From: Escherichia coli
GTDB lineage: Bacteria; Pseudomonadota; Gammaproteobacteria; Enterobacterales; Enterobacteriaceae
Assembly: GCF_044647545.1 (NCBI RefSeq)
Contig: NZ_CP172818.1
Length of the DNA stretch: 64,000 nt
Strand: one strand, 5' to 3'
Below, piece after piece: positions 13,104 through 24,979 of the stretch (position 1 is the first letter of the stretch; each line of letters begins with the position of its first letter). The notes under the pieces were generated by a model. It did not search any database and was not told the origin of the DNA. It worked only from the letters and a program-made list of their open reading frames with translations. The position numbers and the translations under genes were made by a program.

Positions 13104-13535
13104 TTAACGGGTGCGCGGGCACACTTCGCCTTCGCCGAAGAAATAAGCGATTTCGCGAGCGGCAGATTCGACGGAATCAGAACCGTGGGTACCATTTTCG
13201 GTCAGGCTGTCAGCGTAATCAGCACGCAGAGTACCGGCCAGTGCGTTTGCCGGATTGGTCGCGCCCAGCAGATCGCGGTGACGCTGAACAGCATTTTCAC
13301 CTTCCAGCACGGAAACAACGATCGGGCCAGAAGTCATGAATTCAACCAGACCATCAAAGAACGGTTTTCCATCGTGTTCAGCATAAAAGCCACGAGCCTG
13401 TTCAACGGTCAGGTGCAGCATTTTGGTGCCGACAATTTTGAACCCTGCAGCTTCAAAGCGCGCAAAGATACTACCAATCACGTTTTTTGCTACCGCGTTC
13501 GGTTTGATGATGGAAAAAGTACGTTCAATAGCCAT
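13104..13535 (-). CDS. ndk: Nucleoside diphosphate kinase
   Basis: 143 aa, [39 protein letters not shown]... Confidence 0.95.
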
Positions 13536-13683
13536 TTTTACCTCTGTAAATTGTTCTGTTGTTGTCTGTACCAGCGTACGAGATGGCGCGGATTATAATG
13601 AGCAACAGAGCCGTTGACTATTGATGAAGGTAACATTTTTTTAAAATAAACCCAGTTTAAGCAACAATCAGGGGCAAAACAGA

Positions 13684-15996
13684 CTATTGCATGACAAATT
13701 TCACTGTCGCTATTTGCCCCACCTCATCCATCACCAGCAATTGATAATCGCCTTTATCCGTCAAATGCAGGGTCACGTTGCGCCCACGTTCAGTTAACGG
13801 TTCGCCGTTCAGAAACCACCAGCGTTCACCTGCCCCTCCACTTGATTGTAACGGCAAAGTCGCTTCCGCTGCGCCCGGTAAACGTTTAATAATCGCGCCA
13901 TCGCGCACACCTGTTAGCTGCAGCGGGAGTTGTGCATCGTGACCGTATGGCGGGCAAATTGTCGAGGCCGGTGGCAAGCGCACAGCGCGACGTTCTGATG
14001 CGGGCAGCCAGGGTTCCAGCGGTAGCGGCCAGACATTTATCATTTCTTGTCGCGCCTGAGGGCAATCAGCGGCAACACGTTTGCCGTTTTCATCCAGCCA
14101 GATGGGGAAACGAATGCCATTAATGCCTTCCTGCTCCGGCAGTAATAGAGTTGGCGGCTGACTCCCGTCCAGCAGCCAGGTTGCCAGGCGGCGGCGACAG
14201 TTACTGTCACCTTCCGGCAAAGACTGTCCGCCCGGCCAGCAGATAACGCCACGACTTACAGAGTCAGGACGTGGGTCTTCCGGCAGATTCGCACTGCGCG
14301 ACAGTAAGATATTATTGACCTGATTCAACAATGGTACGGCGCTGGCAAAGCCAAACTGACCAACAACGGGCGTGCCGTCCGGTCTGCCAGTCCAGATCCC
14401 AATGACATAGCGAGCGTTAACCCCAATCGCCCAGGCATCACGATAGCCATAGCTGGTGCCCGTTTTCCATGCCAGTGGGGCGACGCGCGGCAAGGCACCA
14501 TCCGGCAAGGGTTGCGCTTCATCAGCCATAATCCGGCGAATGATCCACGCAGCCCCCGACGACATTAAAGGCCGTTCAAGCAGCGGATCATCAGGCTGTA
14601 AGCGCAATTTACCTGCCTTGCCGTGGCGAGCAAACGCGGTATACGCTGCCGCCATATTTTCCAGTTTTGCACCAGCGCCGCCGAGAATGAGCGAAAGATT
14701 CGGCGCAGCACCGTTGGGCAAATATAACGGCAATCCAGCATTGCGTAACTTTGCCGCAAACCGTTTCGGTCCATAGGCTTCCAGCACCTGCACAGCAGGT
14801 AAGTTCAGCGATCGCACCAGCGCCTCACTCATGCTGATCGGCCCATGAAAACCGCTGTCAAAGTTGCCAGGTCGGTAATCACCGGTGCGTCGGGGGACGT
14901 CTTGCAACAGCGATGCCGGGTGGATCAAGCCTTCATCCAGCGCCAGACCATAAACAAACGGTTTGAGCACCGATCCTGGCGATCGGATCGCATTGACCAT
15001 ATCAACATGACCAAAGCGTGAATCATCGTTGAGATCAACCGATCCCACCCAGCCGCGAACACGCATATCGGTATGATCAACCACGATCATCGCCAGTGAG
15101 CTGCGCGGTGGCAATCGTCCTTTCCAGTTTTGCGCCAGTTCTTCCAGACGTCGTTGAAGACCGGCATCCAGCGTAGTAACGATTTTGTCGCTTTTGCTTT
15201 TACCGAGCATCATGCGCGAAAACAGCGGTGCCAGTTGCGGCATTTGTCGGGGTGCCAGCCAGATGGGTTCTTCCCTTGACTCTTTTACCTGCTCACGGGA
15301 CCACACACCTTGCACGGCCATCCTTTCGAGCACTTTATTACGCGCGGCTTCGGCACGTTCCGGCCAGCGATCCGGGCGCAGTCGGCTGGGCGCTTGCGGC
15401 AACACCGCCAGCATTGCCGCCTCGGAATAGCTTAAATTCGCAGGCGATTTTCCGAGATAAGCCCAACTTGCCGCACCGATCCCCTGCAACGTACCGCCAA
15501 ACGGAGCGCGGTTAAGATACAAGGTCAGAATTTCACGCTTAGACAGATGCCACTCCAGTTGCAACGCGCGCCAGAGCTGGCGAATTTTGCCGCCAAATGT
15601 TTTGGGGTGAGGATCAAGCAGACGAGCAACCTGCATAGTGAGCGTGCTGCCACCGGAAATAACCCTTCCCGAAGTGAGATCTTGCCATGCTGCGCGCGCC
15701 ACCGAGAATGGATTCACCCCCGGATGCTTCCAGAACCAGCGATCTTCATAATTGATCAGCGCTTCAAGGTAACGTGGAGAAACATCTTCGATTGTTACCG
15801 GATAACGCCAGATGCCTTCCGCATCGGCAAAGCGCCAGAGCGGCGTCCCATCCTGCGCCACAACCACTCGTGCGGGATTGACTTCATGCAGCGGTAGAGG
15901 CCAGAGTTTATCTGCTCCCCACGCTGCAAGAAAAAGGAGAAATGGCGCAGCTGCCAGCGTTATCCAGCAGCCGCGTTTGGTTAACAAGCGAGGCAT
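13684..15996 (-). CDS. pbpC: Penicillin-binding protein 1C (bifunctional glycosyltransferase/transpeptidase family)
   Basis: 770 aa; start codon abuts the yfhM stop, implying co-transcription. Confidence 0.9.
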   Translation of the reverse strand: MPRLLTKRGCWITLAAAPFLLFLAAWGADKLWPLPLHEVNPARVVVAQDGTPLWRFADAEGIWRYPVTIEDVSPRYLEALINYEDRWFWKHPGVNPFSVARAAWQDLTSGRVISGGSTLTMQVARLLDPHPKTFGGKIRQLWRALQLEWHLSKREILTLYLNRAPFGGTLQGIGAASWAYLGKSPANLSYSEAAMLAVLPQAPSRLRPDRWPERAEAARNKVLERMAVQGVWSREQVKESREEPIWLAPRQMPQLAPLFSRMMLGKSKSDKIVTTLDAGLQRRLEELAQNWKGRLPPRSSLAMIVVDHTDMRVRGWVGSVDLNDDSRFGHVDMVNAIRSPGSVLKPFVYGLALDEGLIHPASLLQDVPRRTGDYRPGNFDSGFHGPISMSEALVRSLNLPAVQVLEAYGPKRFAAKLRNAGLPLYLPNGAAPNLSLILGGAGAKLENMAAAYTAFARHGKAGKLRLQPDDPLLERPLMSSGAAWIIRRIMADEAQPLPDGALPRVAPLAWKTGTSYGYRDAWAIGVNARYVIGIWTGRPDGTPVVGQFGFASAVPLLNQVNNILLSRSANLPEDPRPDSVSRGVICWPGGQSLPEGDSNCRRRLATWLLDGSQPPTLLLPEQEGINGIRFPIWLDENGKRVAADCPQARQEMINVWPLPLEPWLPASERRAVRLPPASTICPPYGHDAQLPLQLTGVRDGAIIKRLPGAAEATLPLQSSGGAGERWWFLNGEPLTERGRNVTLHLTDKGDYQLLVMDEVGQIATVKFVMQ

Positions 15997-18900
15997 TTAC
16001 GGTCTGACAATCAGCAAATCTTCAGCCGCGCCGGTCGCCCGCCATTGGGGAACATACATTGATTCCACCATCGGTTGCGGTACCTGATACGTTCCCGGCG
16101 TCACCGCCCGCGCCAGATACACCAGCGTTACCGGTTGGTATTCATCAACGGCAACCGCCGCCACAAAGCGATCGTCACGGAACTCAATGTGCTTAATGCT
16201 CGCCTGCTGCATCTGGTTCAGTAAGTTTTGCACTTCGCCACCACTTTGCTCCAGGCTGGCGCTACCGTTCGCCAGATTCTGGTTTTCCAGTTCCAGACCC
16301 GCAGGCAGCAGATCCACGACTAACGCATCCGGCACGCTGTTACTGGCTTTTACCTGCAACCAGACCAGCACCAGATCGCCGCTACGTAACGAGTCCAGCG
16401 ATTTGCTCTTACCATCAGTACCAAGAATATGACGCTCGATTTGCAGCACATTGTTCGCCGGTAAAGGTGCGGATTGCGGATAACCGCTGGCATCCACACG
16501 CAGCCATAACGGCTGATCGCCACTGTTGGTCACCTGCAAGGTGGCAAGTTGATCACTATTCAGATTGCTGTTTAGCGTTTTCTCGCCTGTCAGCGGCTCA
16601 GCTGAGAAAGAGGTTTGCGCCTGCCATTTACCCGGTAAATCCTGAACCGTACGGGCAGCCAGGAACAACGCGTTACTTTCCTGCGTCGATAGCCAGCGTT
16701 CACCAAACGCCTGCTGCGAAAGCGTATTCAGCAAAGTGTTCTGCTCATCGGGTAGCAGTTTATTTTCTTCCAGCAAGGAGAGCATTAACGCGTTGTCGCG
16801 CAGTGGGCTACCGTAATCACCCAGCCATTTCCGCTCATCATTACGCGGCGTTTTCAGCGCCAGCGCAATTGCTTCTTCACCACGCGTCGCATCACCCATG
16901 GTTTTCAGCGCAACGCCAAGTTGCAGCAGCGGTAAACCAGAAGCGGCATCTGCACGATGCTCCCAGATTTCACGCAGCGCACCCAGTGGAGCTTTTTGCT
17001 GACGGGCCAGCACCAGCGCAGCGTAAGACTGTACGGCGAATTTACTGGCTTTGAGATTATCCGCATACGGAATCGACATCATGCCCGGATCTTGTAAATA
17101 GCGCAGTAGACGCTCATTCCCCCGGTTAATGGCGTCTGTCGGCACGCTGTAACCCTGCTCACCTGCGCGGACCAGGAAATCCATCACGTAAGCCGTCAGC
17201 CAGTACTCTTCATCACCGTTTTTATCCCACAGCGCAAAGCCACCGTTATCACGTTGCATTTGCAGTAAACGAGAAATGCCGATATCGACTGCCGCACGGC
17301 GCTTCTCATCACTGTCGCCTTTGATGCCCAACGCCTGCAGTTGGGCTGCGTTGGTGTAAAGTGACGGGAACAGGCCGCTGGCGGTTTGCTCCAGACAACC
17401 GTACGGATACGCTTTTAACTCTTTGATATAACGTGCAATATTCAACGGTGGTTTGCCGCTCAACAACAATTGCCCTTCCAGCGTAACAGGCGAGAAGTTT
17501 TGCAATCCATCAGCTGGAATCGCCCATGTCTCACCAGGCTGCAACGCCGTACCGTAATTGACCGTTTGTGCCGGGAATGCCGGACGGACGCCGATTTTCC
17601 ACTGTTTATGCTGATCGGCAACGGTTTCCCCCGGTAACGCTAACCCGCTAATGGTGGCCTGAATGTCACCATCGCCAAACCCCGTCAGAGCACGCACCGG
17701 GATAAACAGCGTAGTACGCACCCCTGGCGCTAATTCAACGGCTGCGGGTGAATCGCTGACCAGTTCAAGCAAACCACTGGCGGTCAGGGCAACGTTCAGT
17801 TTTTGCGGTTTATCGGTAAGATTAGTGATATCCAGCGTCAGACGCGAGGTATCGCCACTCGCCATAAAGCGCGGCATGTTCAGTTCAGCAATCACCGGTG
17901 CGGCAACTATCACTTTGCTTTCGTTGCTACCGAAGTCATCTGCCGTCCAGGCTTGCGCCATGACGCGCAATTCACCGTTAAAATCGCCAATCGGCAGTGC
18001 AACCGAGCCTTCGCCCTGTTCGTTGAGCGTTACCGGCAGCGCCTGCTGCGCGACAATATTGACGTGATTGACCGGCGGTTTACCACCACGTTTCAGCTCA
18101 TCACCATCGCCACCGAAACGCAGAGCTGCCAGACGCCCCTGACCTTCAATAACCTGACCGTAAATATCGTAAATGTCTGCGCCATAGCGTTTCTGACCAA
18201 AGAACGCCTGCCACGGATCTGGCGTAACGTAGCCAGTAATATTCAGCACACCACTATCAACGGCAGACACCAGCACATTCACCTGTTTAGGCTTCTCGCC
18301 ATTTTTAGTGCTGGCTTTAATTTTCACGGTTAATGGTTGATTGGGACGCATTTTTGCTGGTGTTTCCAGCGCCAGATCGAGGCGACGGTTTTCATCACCA
18401 AGCGGCAGATGCAACACACCAACCGCGCGTTTTGGCGTCGCGGAGCGAGATTTATCGCCAGGACGCACCACCAGCGTACTCAAATAAAGATCATGACGAT
18501 TCCAGGTTTTATTGACCGGAATCGTCAGATCCAGCCCTTGAGCCGGAACATCAATCTCTTGCCACCACAGCGGCCCTTCACTGGACTCGACCATCGCATA
18601 ACCTTTACCCGCCGTTGGCGCAGCAATATGCAACTTAATGGTATCGCCAGGGCGATAACTGGCTTTATCCAGTTTCAGCGTGACACGGTCGGGTCGCACG
18701 GCACCGCTCCCGTCGCTGTTGTCCTGCCAGCTATAGCCAGCCCAGAAACGCACACTACTGACCGCTTCATTCGGCGCTTTGACTTCCAGACGATAAGCGC
18801 CCCACTCTACCGGGAAACTGACCTTGCCGGTTTCGTCCGCTTTCAGATCCAGAGTTTGTTCATTTTCGATCAGATCTTTTTGATCAAACTGTGACTGCCA

Positions 18901-20955
18901 GCCTTCATCTTCTGACCAGTTCCAGTAGTAATCGCGGCGTTCGCGAATCAGGCGCACCTGCAAGCCCGACACGGCTTTTTTTACGCCTTGCGCATCGCTA
19001 TAAACGATGTCAAAAGCGGCGTTACTGCCTTCATCAACAATGGGCTGTTTCACAGTGCTGTCAGTGCGATAATCGTAAGCCGATTTCGAGGCGAACTGCG
19101 GACGGATCCCCGGCAATGCATCGGCAGGCCAGATAGCCTGCTCAGCGCGGCGCGTCACCGGGCGACCGCCCGATTCCAGCAAACTACCCTGGAAAATAAC
19201 CTGTAATGGGGAATGCGTTTCCTTCCACTGGCTTTCTGTAGAAACTTCGCCACGCCCTTTATCATCCAGCGTCAACTGAACTTCATCCAGCGTGCGGGAA
19301 AGATTTTCGGCAGCTATCTCGCCGAATTCGAAACCAGGTAAGGCTGACACAGCTTCACGCAGTGGGCGCAGGAAAAGTTGCCCTTGCAAAATATTACCAT
19401 TAGCAGGCGCACCATACAGGTAGTACCCCACCACGGAGAATTTCACTTCATCTTTCGGCGTTAGCGGGGTTTTCTCACCGGTCAGATTCAGCGCCATGCG
19501 CTCTGGCATAAAATCTTCGACGTGGAAATCCCACATCCGGTACTGGTTATCGCCCGTGTTAGCGCGAATATGCCACATACCGGTTGCCGCATTGCTATCG
19601 AGTGGCCAGGTAAAGTGGTAGAGGCCATTCTCCGGCTGACTAACGACGCTCCTGAGTACCTGCCCGTCGGGTTTAATCACGTCTAACTTGATGGGTTGAT
19701 CGGGCAATGCTTTACCGTCTGCATCACGCAGCAAACCATTGAGGATGACCGTTTCACCCGGGCGATAAAGATCGCGCGGGCCAAACATGAAAAACTGTTT
19801 GCTATAGCCCGGCGCGCCAGCAATGTTAAATTCCGCTAAGTCCAGCGCCGGGAGTTTTAAATCGAGTAGCGTTGTCTGACCGTCTTTACGCGCCAGCAGT
19901 AATGCCGCATTTTTATCATTTTCCAGCTGCACATGCCCCTGAGCATCACTGGTTGCCTGAGTCAGAGTCTGCCCTTTCTCATTTAATAAAGAGACTTCTA
20001 TTCCTTGCTGGGCCGCGCCGTTTTCCAGACTTTGGGTAAAGATATCCAGACGATTGTGATAACGGTGAGCTGAAACGCCGATATCACTTAACGTAAACAG
20101 CGTCGCGGGATTACTGTAATCGTAACGTCCAGCCTGATTCATCACAGCCAGATACACGCCTGCCTGCTGAAGCGGTTTGATATCGCCCAGCGGCAGCAAT
20201 AATTTTTCACGGGTGTTACGCGCAGGATTGAGATCAAACCGTCCAGTGTAGACCAGATCCGCCATCTGCAGCAGTTTGTCTGACTGCCAGTTCGCCAGCG
20301 AATTGCGGTATTCCCATTGGCTAATGAAAGCGGGCAGTGATTCTGGTTTCACACGGAAGAAGTTAACATCGACATTGTTAACGTTGAGCGCCATTACCGG
20401 CAGCCCTTCAATAACTTTACCAGGTAACAACGAACCACGGCTGGCAAAACCGACGCTGGGTTGGATATCACGGGTAGTTATAGTTTTTTCGTCATCTTTA
20501 CTGAAGGTTGCGTTGTTGAGTGCTTTGACCTCCTTGCCAATAGTGACGATCAAATCACGTTTCGGTTCGAGGTGGCGTAAACGCAACTCTTTAAGATTAT
20601 CTGACAGCTCCCAGGCACCATCCACTTTGCCGCTTTTCTTATCGACGACATGGATAACGCGTGAGAAATCCTGATCCGGGTCGAGAGGAATGGAGAACGT
20701 CAGCACCAGCGTGGCTGCGCCATCAAGTTGAACTTCAGAGAGATCCAGCAATGTCAGCGCCTTACCGGCACTCTGTTGGGCCAGTTTTTGTCGCTCCGGC
20801 GCGGAAAGTTTTGCTGAACTCACGTTTTCTGAAGAGGCCGCTTTAGTAACTTCAGAAGGCGCATCTTTTTTCACCGCTGTTGGCGCGTTATCGTTGTTGT
20901 CGCACCCTGCCAGCGCCAGCATTAGCATGCAGGCGGCTACGCGTAACTTTTTCAT
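15997..20955 (-). CDS. yfhM: Alpha-2-macroglobulin family lipoprotein (ECAM)
   Basis: 1652 aa, MKKLRVAACMLMLALAGCDNN... (lipobox LAGC); very large periplasmic protein. Confidence 0.9.
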   Translation of the reverse strand: MKKLRVAACMLMLALAGCDNNDNAPTAVKKDAPSEVTKAASSENVSSAKLSAPERQKLAQQSAGKALTLLDLSEVQLDGAATLVLTFSIPLDPDQDFSRVIHVVDKKSGKVDGAWELSDNLKELRLRHLEPKRDLIVTIGKEVKALNNATFSKDDEKTITTRDIQPSVGFASRGSLLPGKVIEGLPVMALNVNNVDVNFFRVKPESLPAFISQWEYRNSLANWQSDKLLQMADLVYTGRFDLNPARNTREKLLLPLGDIKPLQQAGVYLAVMNQAGRYDYSNPATLFTLSDIGVSAHRYHNRLDIFTQSLENGAAQQGIEVSLLNEKGQTLTQATSDAQGHVQLENDKNAALLLARKDGQTTLLDLKLPALDLAEFNIAGAPGYSKQFFMFGPRDLYRPGETVILNGLLRDADGKALPDQPIKLDVIKPDGQVLRSVVSQPENGLYHFTWPLDSNAATGMWHIRANTGDNQYRMWDFHVEDFMPERMALNLTGEKTPLTPKDEVKFSVVGYYLYGAPANGNILQGQLFLRPLREAVSALPGFEFGEIAAENLSRTLDEVQLTLDDKGRGEVSTESQWKETHSPLQVIFQGSLLESGGRPVTRRAEQAIWPADALPGIRPQFASKSAYDYRTDSTVKQPIVDEGSNAAFDIVYSDAQGVKKAVSGLQVRLIRERRDYYWNWSEDEGWQSQFDQKDLIENEQTLDLKADETGKVSFPVEWGAYRLEVKAPNEAVSSVRFWAGYSWQDNSDGSGAVRPDRVTLKLDKASYRPGDTIKLHIAAPTAGKGYAMVESSEGPLWWQEIDVPAQGLDLTIPVNKTWNRHDLYLSTLVVRPGDKSRSATPKRAVGVLHLPLGDENRRLDLALETPAKMRPNQPLTVKIKASTKNGEKPKQVNVLVSAVDSGVLNITGYVTPDPWQAFFGQKRYGADIYDIYGQVIEGQGRLAALRFGGDGDELKRGGKPPVNHVNIVAQQALPVTLNEQGEGSVALPIGDFNGELRVMAQAWTADDFGSNESKVIVAAPVIAELNMPRFMASGDTSRLTLDITNLTDKPQKLNVALTASGLLELVSDSPAAVELAPGVRTTLFIPVRALTGFGDGDIQATISGLALPGETVADQHKQWKIGVRPAFPAQTVNYGTALQPGETWAIPADGLQNFSPVTLEGQLLLSGKPPLNIARYIKELKAYPYGCLEQTASGLFPSLYTNAAQLQALGIKGDSDEKRRAAVDIGISRLLQMQRDNGGFALWDKNGDEEYWLTAYVMDFLVRAGEQGYSVPTDAINRGNERLLRYLQDPGMMSIPYADNLKASKFAVQSYAALVLARQQKAPLGALREIWEHRADAASGLPLLQLGVALKTMGDATRGEEAIALALKTPRNDERKWLGDYGSPLRDNALMLSLLEENKLLPDEQNTLLNTLSQQAFGERWLSTQESNALFLAARTVQDLPGKWQAQTSFSAEPLTGEKTLNSNLNSDQLATLQVTNSGDQPLWLRVDASGYPQSAPLPANNVLQIERHILGTDGKSKSLDSLRSGDLVLVWLQVKASNSVPDALVVDLLPAGLELENQNLANGSASLEQSGGEVQNLLNQMQQASIKHIEFRDDRFVAAVAVDEYQPVTLVYLARAVTPGTYQVPQPMVESMYVPQWRATGAAEDLLIVRP

Positions 20956-21161
20956 TTTTCATCCCTGCCACAATGGCCCGTTAGCAACGTCGAATAATTA
21001 TTATGCGTGAGAATTTACGTTATGTAATTCAGTATCACGCCCATACAATCCGAATTTTAGTGAGAATTGTGGCTCAGACAGCCAAATCAGCCTCTTTTGC
21101 TTGTCGCTTTTCACTAAACATCCGACAATTTAGCCTAACCCCGGCAAAAATGGAGATGCCT

Positions 21162-22007
21162 ATGTCCACGACATGGTTTGTAGGAGCCGACTGGCTCGCC
21201 GAACATATTGATGACCCGGAAATTCAGATTATCGATGCCCGCATGGCGTCGCCTGGACAGGAAGATCGTAACGTTGCTCAGGAGTATCTGAATGGACATA
21301 TTCCCGGCGCAGTGTTTTTTGATATCGAAGCGCTTTCTGATCACACTTCCCCGCTTCCGCACATGCTGCCGCGCCCGGAAACGTTCGCCGTGGCGATGCG
21401 TGAGTTAGGCGTTAACCAGGATAAGCACCTGATTGTCTATGACGAAGGTAATCTTTTCTCAGCCCCACGAGCATGGTGGATGCTGCGCACCTTTGGTGTA
21501 GAGAAAGTGTCGATTCTGGGGGGTGGACTTGCAGGCTGGCAGCGCGATGTTCTGCTGTTAGAAGAAGGTGCAGTAGAGCTGCCGGAAGGAGAGTTTAACG
21601 CCACGTTTAATCCTGAAGCCGTGGTGAAAGTCACCGATGTGTTATTGGCAAGCCATGAAAATACGGCGCAAATTATTGATGCCCGCCCGGCTGCACGTTT
21701 TAACGCAGAAGTTGATGAACCTCGCCCAGGTTTACGTCGCGGACATATTCCCGGTGCATTGAACGTTCCGTGGACGGAACTGGTGCGCGAAGGCGAATTA
21801 AAAACGACCGATGAACTGGATGCGATATTTTTTGGTCGCGGCGTCAGCTATGACAAACCGATTATCGTCAGCTGCGGCTCTGGTGTAACGGCAGCCGTGG
21901 TTTTGTTGGCACTCGCGACGCTGGATGTGCCAAACGTGAAACTGTACGACGGCGCATGGAGTGAATGGGGCGCACGGGCAGATTTACCGGTTGAGCCATT
22001 GAAATAA
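21162..22007 (+). CDS. sseA: 3-mercaptopyruvate sulfurtransferase (tandem rhodanese domains)
   Basis: Track ORF 21003..22007 contains MSTTWFVGADWLAEHIDDPEIQIIDARM... after a 53-codon extension; start set to give 281 aa; active-site CGSGVTA present. Confidence 0.9.
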   Translation: MSTTWFVGADWLAEHIDDPEIQIIDARMASPGQEDRNVAQEYLNGHIPGAVFFDIEALSDHTSPLPHMLPRPETFAVAMRELGVNQDKHLIVYDEGNLFSAPRAWWMLRTFGVEKVSILGGGLAGWQRDVLLLEEGAVELPEGEFNATFNPEAVVKVTDVLLASHENTAQIIDARPAARFNAEVDEPRPGLRRGHIPGALNVPWTELVREGELKTTDELDAIFFGRGVSYDKPIIVSCGSGVTAAVVLLALATLDVPNVKLYDGAWSEWGARADLPVEPLK

Positions 22008-22023
22008 GCTTTTTACAGGCAAT

Positions 22024-22053
22024 AAAAAACCGCCGAATTTGGCGGTTTTTTAT
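22024..22053 (+). terminator. Rho-independent terminator downstream of sseA
   Basis: Hairpin AACCGCCGAATTTGGCGGTT followed by a T tract, 17 nt after the sseA stop. Confidence 0.6.
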
Positions 22054-22469
22054 TGCTGGTCTGTTCCCTCAATATACCAAACACCCACGACACAAACTCC
22101 TAACCTCTTTCAACAAAAAATTTCTTTATTATATCCACTGCGGCCCTTTCCGCCAACTTAAAAAATGTTCGGTAATAAAATAACCTGGCTTATTAGTCCG
22201 AATTCGGACAAATATAAACAAATCAGCTCAATATTAAAAATACTAATCGGTAAAAGATATTACTTAAACGTGTAAATTCACTTTCTTTAAACAACAAAAA
22301 ACCGCCAAAATCAGGCGGTTTTTTGTTGCTGGTTTGGTTCGCGGCCTTTCCAGCAGATTGGCTTGTGTTGCATGAGCAACGCAGGTGCTTCACAGCAAAG
22401 CAATACTCGCCAGTAACTCTCTTTTTGTCAAGCGAAAGAGAGTAATCATTGTTTATTTAGCGTATTATC

Positions 22470-22757
22470 GACACCGGCCCTTTCCGCCGTCTCGCAAACG
22501 GGCGCTGGCTTAAGGAAAGGATGTTCCATGGCCGTAAATGCAGGTGTTTCACAGCGCTTGCTATCGCGGCAATATCGCCAGTGGTGCTGTCGTGATGCGG
22601 TCTTCGCATGGACCGCACAATGAAGATACGGAGCTTTTGTATCGTACTTATTGTTTCTGGTGCGCTGTTAACCGAGGTAAATAATAACCGGAGTCTCTCC
22701 GGCAACAATTTATTGGTGGTTAACAACCTTCAGAACAGCAGGTAAGCCCGAATGCCG
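22470..22757 (+). ncRNA. ryfA: RyfA-family small RNA locus; boundaries approximate
   Basis: Position between sseA and sseB matches where ryfA sits in E. coli K-12. Ends at hairpin ATGCCGCCCTTTGGGGCGGCAT plus ATTTT (22731-22757). 5' end not determinable from sequence alone. Confidence 0.35.
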
Positions 22758-22776
22758 CCCTTTGGGGCGGCATATT

Positions 22777-23553
22777 TTAGATTATCCGGTTCTGTTTAAA
22801 GTCACGCAAAAAACCACCCCAGCGACGTTCATAGAATGGCACAATATGTTCGGTAATAAAGTGGCTAATTCCTTTTTCCCCTTTTTTCACCTGACAAATA
22901 TCGATGGGTTCATCGCCAGGTAATGTATCGGTCGCTACACTTCCCGCCGCCTGAATAATTTCTTCGATATCACCATCGGCTTCAATGCCAATAAGTAAAT
23001 TAGGCTGTGCCTCTTTGTTCTCTTTAATTGAACAAATAAAAGCACGCTTCACCGGCTTAATAGTTTTAAATAAGGTGGTGAGAGAATCAATCATTTGTGC
23101 TGGTGGCTCTGCGACTTCCGATAATATCAGCGATTCACCGCCCTCCAGTACTTCCTGGCTGCTCAGCGGATTTCCTTCTTCACCAATCAACAAACTGATT
23201 TCACGCGGCATAAATTCTTTACCGGTTGGCAGTTTGGCATTAAGGAAGAGCGTTTCGCCAAGGGTCATCTCAAACAATGTGCGAACGGGCATTACGACAA
23301 ATGCCTGTTCGTCTTCAACCGCCTGTTGAAGTGCTTCTAACGAGGTAAAAAAAGGAATGACGCTGGTGCCGTCTTCTTTTTCCCAGTGCTGTAAATCAAG
23401 CGCGCTATCTTCAACCACAGCCTCGCCCTGCGCCGCCGTACCCGGCACCCAGACGGTGGATTCCAGTAGAGTACGGAAAAAGGCCGGGCGGTGCGCCGGT
23501 TCGGTTGCTGCTTTTTCCAGCAGGTCTTCAAGTTCATTTTTTGTTTCGGACAT
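22777..23553 (-). CDS. sseB: Enhanced serine sensitivity protein SseB
   Basis: Track ORF 22777..23562 contains MSETKNELEDLLEKAATEPAHRPAFFRTL... after a 3-codon extension; 258 aa. Confidence 0.88.
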   Translation of the reverse strand: MSETKNELEDLLEKAATEPAHRPAFFRTLLESTVWVPGTAAQGEAVVEDSALDLQHWEKEDGTSVIPFFTSLEALQQAVEDEQAFVVMPVRTLFEMTLGETLFLNAKLPTGKEFMPREISLLIGEEGNPLSSQEVLEGGESLILSEVAEPPAQMIDSLTTLFKTIKPVKRAFICSIKENKEAQPNLLIGIEADGDIEEIIQAAGSVATDTLPGDEPIDICQVKKGEKGISHFITEHIVPFYERRWGGFLRDFKQNRII

Positions 23554-23589
23554 AAGAACCACAATTCATTCAACGTTCGGGGCACAAGT

Positions 23590-23688
23590 GCCTGATGCGC
23601 CATACTTATCAGGCCTACAAGGGATTCACAATTTGTTGAATTTGCAATACTTTGTAGGCCGGATATGGCGTTTACGCCGCATCCGGCA
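23590..23688. repeat. REP (repetitive extragenic palindromic) element pair
   Basis: GCCTGATGCGCCATACTTATCAGGCCTAC and GTAGGCCGGATATGGCGTTTACGCCGCATCCGGCA in inverted orientation between sseB and pepB. Confidence 0.7.
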
Positions 23689-23695
23689 TATTAGT

Positions 23696-24979
23696 TTACG
23701 CCGTTAACAGATTAGCAATCGTGCGCACACCAAGTCCCGTAGCACCCGCAGACCACTGTTCAACCGGCGCTTTACGGTAAGTCGCCGAGCAGTCGATATG
23801 CAGCCAGCCTTGCTGATAGTTCTCAACAAAGTGCGACAGGAAGCCCGCCGCCGTGCTCGCGCCTGCCGGGTACGCCGCGCTTCCGGTATTGTTCAGTTCG
23901 GCAAAGTTAGACGGCAGCTGGCTGCGGTGGAACTCCGCCAGCGGCAGACGCCAGAACGGTTCATTCTCCTGCGCGGCACTCGCCAGCAAGCGACCGGCAA
24001 GCGCATCGTCAAAACTGAACAGCGCGTGATAATCATTACCCAGCGCAGTTTTCGCCGCCCCGGTGAGGGTCGCCGCATCAATGATCAGTTCCGGTTTCTG
24101 CGCACTGGCATCAATCAGGCCATCGGCCAGCACCAGACGCCCTTCCGCATCAGTGTTCATCACTTCAACTTTTTTACCGTTGCGATAGGTAATAATATCG
24201 CCCAGTTTGAACGCGTTGCCGCTGATCAGGTTATCCGCACAGCAGAGGAACAGCTTCACGCGCTTGTTCAGTCCGCGCGTAATGGCAAACGCCAGCGCCC
24301 CGGTAACCGTTGCCGCGCCGCCCATGTCCGACTTCATCGAGTCCATAAATGCGGTCTGTTTGATGCTGTAGCCGCCGGAGTCAAAAGTGATGCCTTTACC
24401 AACCAGGCACGCGTACACTGGCGCTTCTTTATCGCCAGTTGGGTTGTAATCCAGCGCCAGCAATACCGGAGAACGTTCTGAACCGCGTCCGACGGTGTGC
24501 AGCCCCATATAACCTTGATCACGCAGATCTTCGCCTTTGGTGATCCGGTAAGTCACACAATCGCCCGCGACATTGCTGATCAGATCAACAGCACGCTGTG
24601 CCAGTTGCGATGGCCCCAGTTCTTCTGCCGGTGCGTTGATGGTGTCACGCACCCAGTCGATGATCATCAGGCGGTTATCCAGTTCCTGGCGCTGGGCATC
24701 GTCCAGATCCGGCCACTCCACTTTACGCGTGCCTTTCGGGGCTTTGTAACCTTGCCAGAATGCCCAGCAGCGATCCGCATCCCAGCCTTCTCCGCTTAGC
24801 TGAACATGCTTGATGCCCAGACCATCAATCTTGCGCGCCGCACGCTGGATAAGCCCCAGATCGTCTGCCCCGTTCAAATGCAGGGTAATGCCATCATTAT
24901 TAATGCTGTAAGTTGCTTTTTCTCCCCAGCGCGCATCGGCAGGTTGGATAGAGAGGGTAATTTTCATCGCTTCTGTCAT
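23696..24979 (-). CDS. pepB: Peptidase B (M17 leucyl aminopeptidase family)
   Basis: Track ORF 23696..25027 contains [30 protein letters not shown]... after a 16-codon extension; 427 aa. Confidence 0.93.

Follow-up and report, generated by a model that had tools for sequence, protein, structure and literature searches.

When the stop codon of one gene is followed immediately by the start codon of the next, does the expression of the second gene depend on that of the first? This question is raised by yfhM and pbpC, the genes for a bacterial alpha-2-macroglobulin (A2M) and for the penicillin-binding protein PBP1c, which lie directly adjacent to each other on one strand of a 64,000-nucleotide (nt) stretch of the Escherichia coli contig NZ_CP172818.1 (assembly GCF_044647545.1); the whole of this stretch is referred to below as the window. 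A sequence-only reading of the window had taken the absence of a spacer to imply an obligate operon, which would join a protease trap to a peptidoglycan synthase in a defence-and-repair pairing. The pair is a known one in E. coli, and the evidence presented here indicates that it is most likely expressed from one bicistronic transcript on which the translation of pbpC is coupled to that of yfhM, a reading to which a probability of about 0.8 can be assigned. The features on which the argument depends are the following:

13684 to 15996, minus strand: pbpC, encoding the class A penicillin-binding protein PBP1c, 770 amino acids (NCBIfam, Pfam and motifs)
15994 to 15999, minus strand: junction TAAATG, the yfhM stop codon directly followed by, and in frame with, the pbpC start codon
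15997 to 20955, minus strand: yfhM, encoding the type I bacterial A2M known as E. coli alpha-2-macroglobulin (ECAM), 1652 amino acids (Pfam, identity to K-12 and structure matches)
21000 to 21028, minus strand: candidate operon promoter, ATTACA-17-CATAAT, a 9/12 consensus match in the 206-nt divergent spacer between yfhM and sseA
13536 to 13683, minus strand: spacer of 148 nt between pbpC and ndk, with a promoter-like site for ndk and no terminator-like hairpin

The junction and its expression signals

Read on the minus strand, the junction has the sequence ...attgtcagaccgTAAATGcctcgc..., in which the yfhM TAA at 15999-15997 is followed at 15996-15994 by the pbpC ATG, with a spacer of 0 nt. 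The two open reading frames (ORFs) occupy one reading frame and are separated by a single stop codon. The adjacency at 15997/15996 given by the sequence-only reading proved exact when TAAATG was re-extracted, and it agrees with RefSeq, whose annotation of MS6198 (100% identical to the window over 13400-21300) places the yfhM and pbpC boundaries at the same points. The same abutment is found in K-12 MG1655 (yfhM 2647326..2652287, pbpC 2645013..2647325).

The zero-spacer junction cannot be put down to chance in a single strain, and the locus belongs to the E. coli core genome. Of 5426 complete E. coli genomes, 5425 contain the stretch 13400-21300, which is 100% identical to several strains. A 61-mer spanning the junction likewise has a match in 5425 of the 5426, and it contains no indel, all 61 nt being spanned in every listed genome that carries pbpC. 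When the window was aligned with K-12, a phylogroup-B2 uropathogenic E. coli strain, a divergent E. coli (94% protein identity), E. albertii and Citrobacter youngae, TAAATG was invariant across the six sequences and the third-codon positions near it varied.

The signals that would ordinarily allow pbpC to be translated by itself are missing. The 22 nt before its ATG pair with the anti-Shine-Dalgarno sequence of 16S rRNA at +0.4 kcal/mol, which amounts to no Shine-Dalgarno (SD) sequence and is weaker than the pairing of about 95% of the 22-mers sampled inside yfhM; the corresponding values for the neighbouring genes are -6.0 (yfhM), -7.1 (ndk), -5.9 (rlmN) and -6.4 kcal/mol (sseA). The pbpC start codon also lies in predicted local structure, with a mean unpaired probability of 0.35. 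Because pbpC has an AUG that abuts the yfhM UAA and lacks its own ribosome-binding site, PBP1c is most likely produced by reinitiation, and the missing SD sequence strengthens the case for coupled expression.

The sequence-only reading had named an internal promoter or terminator as the feature that would separate the two genes. Consensus scans of the window sequence for such features found neither a sense-strand sigma-70-like promoter inside yfhM nor a terminator-like site between yfhM and pbpC; the nearest promoter-like sites on the sense strand were the candidate at 21028-21000, upstream of yfhM, and one at 15114-15086, inside pbpC. A search against Rfam found no RNA families inside the yfhM-pbpC locus, the only matches (ryfA and IS128) lying beyond sseA. 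Downstream of pbpC the predicted structure is not significant (fold z-score -0.16), and the promoter-like site for ndk has the form TAGTCA-17-TATAAT at 13620..13592 on the minus strand. Since no terminator-like structure follows pbpC, read-through of transcription from pbpC into ndk is possible.

Taken together, these signals suggest a simple scheme, in which transcription would start at the candidate promoter in the yfhM/sseA spacer and generate a bicistronic yfhM-pbpC mRNA. Ribosomes would terminate at the yfhM UAA and restart at the adjacent pbpC AUG, by termination-reinitiation coupling, and the synthesis of PBP1c would thereby be tied to that of YfhM, at an equal or lower level. Both parts of the scheme, the co-transcription of the two genes and the translational coupling of pbpC to yfhM, are the most likely interpretation of the junction, which makes a definite prediction: PBP1c should not be producible without translation of yfhM.

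Spacers in related bacteria and the rival explanations

The range of junctions between A2M genes and pbpC was surveyed by using an alignment of the C-terminal 503 residues of YfhM with 13 homologues to scan one genome per species. The 80 loci considered are the most similar of 562 matches, and all belong to Enterobacterales or Pseudomonas rather than to Proteobacteria as a whole. In 78 of the 80, pbpC lies downstream of the A2M gene on the same strand. The spacers fall into the following classes, in which lengths above 12 nt are approximate because the pbpC starts were there picked heuristically:

0 nt: 8 loci, in Escherichia and Citrobacter; SD absent
1 nt: 17-18 loci, in Enterobacter, Kluyvera, Kosakonia, Pluralibacter, Phytobacter, Pseudescherichia, Lelliottia and others; SD missing or very weak (-1.7 kcal/mol at the strongest)
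3-12 nt: 7 loci, in Mangrovibacter, Pantoea, Hafnia and the Cedecea group
28 nt: 1 locus, in Pseudomonas asuensis
48-82 nt: 15 loci, in Yersinia, Serratia, Photorhabdus, Xenorhabdus, Proteus, Providencia and a few Pseudomonas
116-239 nt: 4 loci, in Budvicia, Moellerella, Morganella and Providencia vermicola
417 nt or more: 25 loci, in Pseudomonas

The spacers of 0-1 nt comprise 26 loci, which come from Enterobacteriaceae and two unclassified metagenome assemblies, and throughout these loci the SD sequence is absent or very weak, with pairing energies of -1.7 to +0.6 kcal/mol, of which only two fall below -0.6. In the 48-82 nt class a strong hairpin (-15 to -48 kcal/mol) stands directly 3' of the A2M stop codon, and pbpC is usually preceded by an SD sequence, which reaches -7.8 kcal/mol in Yersinia and Serratia. 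The association of short spacers with a missing SD sequence, and of long spacers with an SD sequence in most cases, is the pattern expected if short spacers rely on coupling. The A2M-pbpC pair is thus widely conserved, and the junction with zero spacer and no SD sequence is characteristic of Enterobacteriaceae. The conservation check that the sequence-only reading had proposed therefore came out well for the pair itself, within Enterobacterales and Pseudomonas, and less well for the tight junction, which is kept mainly in Enterobacteriaceae.

A terminator between the A2M gene and pbpC is absent in the window, and terminator-like hairpins occur at this position in relatives. GC-rich hairpins follow the A2M stop codon in survey loci L062 (7520-7551), L043 (7517-7556) and L033 (7523-7560), and similar ones are present in L031, L036-L041, L045 and L046, the taxa with hairpins being overall Morganellaceae, Yersiniaceae and Budvicia. 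In the three loci that were scanned, from Proteus penneri, a Providencia genome and Photorhabdus cinerea, the hairpin is terminator-like and has a U-rich tail. In the taxa concerned, these structures may serve as attenuators or terminators between the two genes.

In Pseudomonas the two genes are separated differently, by a conserved ORF for a hydrophobic protein of 97 amino acids that lies on the opposite strand in 21 loci, with 58-100% identity among its members. It has no significant match in Pfam, and an 86-amino-acid ORF that overlaps it on the same strand as the pair looks like its antisense shadow. The representative copy is the following:

L050, 7620 to 7910, minus strand: small Pseudomonas ORF, MQVESFFEWLGQALG...; also found for example in L069, L078, L072 and L053

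Beyond the 80 loci, a more distant set of three contigs with A2M homologues of 44-49% identity was examined, and pbpC was downstream in two of the three. The spacer is 42 nt in a Campylobacteraceae contig, and in a metagenome contig (L086), whose A2M has 44% identity, the A2M gene and the called pbpC share 4 nt, at 2444-2447, which argues that tight coupling also occurs outside Enterobacteriaceae; the third contig has no pbpC. Over all the A2M loci, those in which the downstream sequence available showed no pbpC are L049, L087 and L060, the last with 2.7 kb downstream only.

These junctions invite a less ordinary proposal, namely that Enterobacteriaceae produce PBP1c solely by SD-less reinitiation at UAA-AUG or UAA-N-AUG, as a fixed fraction of YfhM, and that over Enterobacterales and Pseudomonas the pair forms a graded series from independent to fused expression. 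This proposal is tentative, its chances being put slightly below even. If it is true, loci at the independent end of the series would have an SD sequence and, between the genes, either a terminator-like hairpin or a gene on the opposite strand; those at the other end would be fully fused; and the pair would offer a natural example of how a defence protein and a repair enzyme become coupled more tightly, or more loosely, by steps. The junction types specific to particular lineages, such as the hairpin with an SD sequence in Yersinia or Proteus, provide natural controls for the question of whether co-expression is important.

Several observations weigh against the coupled operon, and they are best considered together with the alternatives that they favour. 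The promoter and terminator scans used simple consensus sequences and would miss weak promoters and Rho-dependent termination, and neither yfhM nor pbpC is mentioned in the SMRT-Cappable-seq or TetRP start-site supplementary tables. An in vitro genomic-SELEX (systematic evolution of ligands by exponential enrichment) analysis of RpoE holoenzyme reported a peak of type D in yfhM, at K-12 position 2649866, which corresponds to about 18534 in the window and lies about 2.5 kb upstream of pbpC (PMC5493296). This peak could mark an internal promoter, in which case pbpC would be expressed partly or mainly by itself, for example under a stress sigma factor, and the abutment would reflect genome compaction; the existence of taxa in which pbpC has its own SD sequence and a terminator-like hairpin separates the genes is consistent with such independence. 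The peak, however, represents binding in vitro with orientation unknown, and the absence of a sense-strand sigma-70-like site in yfhM also speaks against this explanation. A search near the peak with the sigma-E consensus GGAACTT-N15-17-TCAAA returned just 9/12 matches, one per strand, both of them distant and unconvincing, the best on the sense strand being GAAACGT-16-TCAAT at 18094, some 440 nt from the peak. Even if an internal promoter existed, the SD-less pbpC would still need ribosomes that were translating the 3' end of yfhM, and independent expression of pbpC in E. coli is judged quite unlikely. The shared reading frame and the single intervening stop codon also raise the idea that occasional read-through of the UAA yields a functional fusion of YfhM with PBP1c. 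Among stop codons UAA works most efficiently in E. coli, and the N-terminal membrane anchor of PBP1c would have the wrong topology if it came after a periplasmic domain. In most other Enterobacteriaceae, moreover, the 1-nt spacer puts pbpC out of frame, and because the shared frame is not kept in these relatives the fusion was rejected as extremely improbable.

A different objection is that gene order may be conserved where there is no functional partnership, so that YfhM and PBP1c would act independently and the defence-and-repair interpretation would have been over-read from their adjacency. No role is known for PBP1c in laboratory culture, and the first phenotype reported for it, in 2018, is unrelated to YfhM (PMC7554673, PMC6131605); cooperation between the two proteins is put forward as "tempting to speculate" (PMC7554673). 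The genome of NCTC9100 (L083, NZ_LR134239.1 1235110-1242158) keeps yfhM and has lost pbpC and ndk by deletion, with rlmN directly after yfhM, and it is the sole case of a truncated junction 61-mer (49 of 61 nt) among the 5426 complete genomes. This strain and the three A2M loci in which no downstream pbpC was seen fit a mere synteny, as does the highly variable architecture of the junction. Against this, the order is kept down to A2M identities of 44-46%, including the Campylobacteraceae contig and the metagenome contig with the 4-nt overlap, and in 78 of 80 gammaproteobacterial loci, a degree of retention that usually exceeds what drift by itself would leave; synteny devoid of partnership is considered unlikely. 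The deletion in NCTC9100, together with the terminator-like hairpins and the opposite-strand ORF in relatives, does argue that the link is not obligatory in evolution. The term "obligate operon" used in the sequence-only reading is thus supported for this genome, by an argument from sequence, since no consensus promoter or terminator was found between the genes and pbpC lacks an SD sequence, and it is not borne out as regards evolution. For E. coli itself the coupled bicistronic operon remains the preferred explanation.

The two proteins and their neighbours

The gene identities assigned in the sequence-only reading were borne out by Pfam, NCBIfam, identity to K-12 and the ECAM structures. In YfhM, eleven domains of the A2M family score above the Pfam cutoffs between residues 59 and 1637 (bMG1, A2M_bMG2, bMG3, MG2, bMG5, bMG6, A2M_BRD, A2M, TED, CUB_A2MG and bMG10), which together give an architecture of MG domains, bait region, TED, CUB and C-terminal MG. 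The protein matches the solved ECAM structures 4RTD (3615 bits), 4ZIQ and 5A42 as well as the Salmonella structure 4U48. Its identity to K-12 YfhM is 98%, and the two differ at about 29 amino acids: the window allele lacks the codon for K-12 Ser1373 (YfhM residues 1372/1373; about 16837-16839) and carries about 28 substitutions, all of which leave the domains and motifs unaffected. Two short features bear on its function:

20902 to 20955, minus strand: YfhM signal peptide with lipobox, MKKLRVAACMLMLALAGC-D; LAGC at residues 15-18, with Cys18 and Asp at position +2
17386 to 17397, minus strand: thioester motif CLEQ in the TED domain, Cys1187 to Gln1190

Asp at +2 is the inner-membrane retention signal of the Lol pathway. 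PMC4498604 states that ECAM is anchored in the inner membrane, and work cited there and in PMC3328433 has shown that K-12 ECAM traps proteases covalently once the bait is cleaved. In an alignment of 14 homologous sequences, the C and the EQ of CLEQ are invariant and the L varies (L/A/S). Every property of a type I A2M that can be tested in sequence is present in the window YfhM, whose identity is secure; the protein is predicted to be an inner-membrane-anchored periplasmic lipoprotein that would trap proteases by means of its bait region and CLEQ thioester.

PbpC scores 1567 bits against NCBIfam NF008414 (cutoff 1121) and 914.5 bits against TIGR02073 (cutoff 494), and it is 98.6% identical to K-12 PbpC (tblastn). 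Its N-terminus is a hydrophobic anchor, which is followed by the Pfam domains Transgly (residues 60-226) and Transpeptidase (330-519) and by BiPBP_C (PF06832; residues 687-767, E-value 1.3e-17), the C-terminal domain that sets PBP1c apart from PBP1a and PBP1b. The glycosyltransferase motifs are intact (EDRWFWKHPG from residue 84, with EDRWF at 84-88, and GGSTLTMQ from 115, with GGSTLT at 115-120), as are the transpeptidase motifs SVLK (342-345), SLN (396-398) and KTG (511-513). Here too every sequence-testable property of PBP1c is present and the identity is secure, and from its motifs the product is predicted to be the third class A peptidoglycan synthase, PBP1c, a protein that is absent from the listing in Egan & Vollmer 2015.

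The pair is flanked downstream by ndk and rlmN and upstream by the divergent sseA. An origin of the locus by recent horizontal transfer, which anomalous composition would indicate, was rejected, the GC content being 0.50-0.575 across the locus and similar in the flanks. The mechanically called sseA ORF, 21003-22007, comprises 334 amino acids, of which the family model aligns only from residue 54; the start used in RefSeq and K-12 is the ATG at 21162 (281 amino acids), which gives the 206-nt divergent spacer to yfhM. The spacer between sseA and sseB, 22007-22777, contains Rfam matches to IS128 (22138-22338) and ryfA (22474-22778), and within ryfA lies a candidate timP-like ORF of 45 amino acids (22608-22745), identified by position alone from the location of K-12 timP inside ryfA. 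This spacer is polymorphic: timP occurs twice in MS6198, next to part of sseB, whereas ryfA/timP occurs once in the window, and only 64 genomes are at least 99% identical to the window over 21900-23700.

Comparison with known systems

The locus was already known. Its RefSeq annotation is identical, it is near-universal in E. coli, and the adjacency of its genes has been discussed since 2004, so that it carries little weight as a discovery. That the pairing had been described before, as the sequence-only reading noted, is confirmed by PMC4498604, PMC3328433, PMC5764988 and PMC7554673, which present it as an operon or as a partnership based on adjacency. Both the observation of A2M-pbpC adjacency and the defence-and-repair idea are credited to Budd et al. 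2004 by the papers that cite it (PMC4498604, PMC3328433, PMC3735191, PMC5764988, PMC6131605, PMC7554673), whose own wording is "proposed", "postulated" or, in PMC7554673, the phrase quoted above. The defence-and-repair pairing invoked by the sequence-only reading is therefore indeed to be found in the literature, but as a hypothesis drawn from gene adjacency (PMC4498604, PMC7554673, PMC6131605), according to which YfhM and PBP1c would cooperate in protease capture and cell-wall repair after a breach of the outer membrane. The additions made in the present work are modest, and consist of the finding that pbpC has no SD sequence, with its implication of coupling by reinitiation, and of the series of junction types, which differ by lineage. 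What value the locus retains is that of a tidy, testable case that concerns a protein, PBP1c, with no established physiological role.

As regards its junction, the pair resembles translationally coupled pairs of the UAAAUG, AUGA and UGAUG types, with which it shares the abutting stop and start codons and a downstream gene that lacks an SD sequence; it differs from them in that its coupling is a prediction from sequence. The closest known system is E. coli K-12 yfhM(b2520)-pbpC(b2519), which has the same gene order, strand, flanks and TAAATG, and from which the window differs in nothing structural. The window is also like the described type I A2M and PBP1c pair (Budd et al. 2004; Salmonella Sa-A2M, 4U48), in which a thioester lipoprotein A2M is encoded directly upstream of pbpC on the same strand, whereas in type I A2M-pbpC pairs elsewhere the junction varies by lineage, compared to the 0 nt found here. 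The type II A2Ms, such as E. coli YfaS and Pseudomonas aeruginosa MagD, share with YfhM the MG-domain fold family and a periplasmic location, but they lack the lipobox Cys and the CXEQ motif and are encoded within an operon of six genes (magABCDEF) that has no pbpC (PMC3735191). Both of these motifs are found in the window protein, and its gene is followed by pbpC; it therefore belongs with the type I A2Ms and not with type II.

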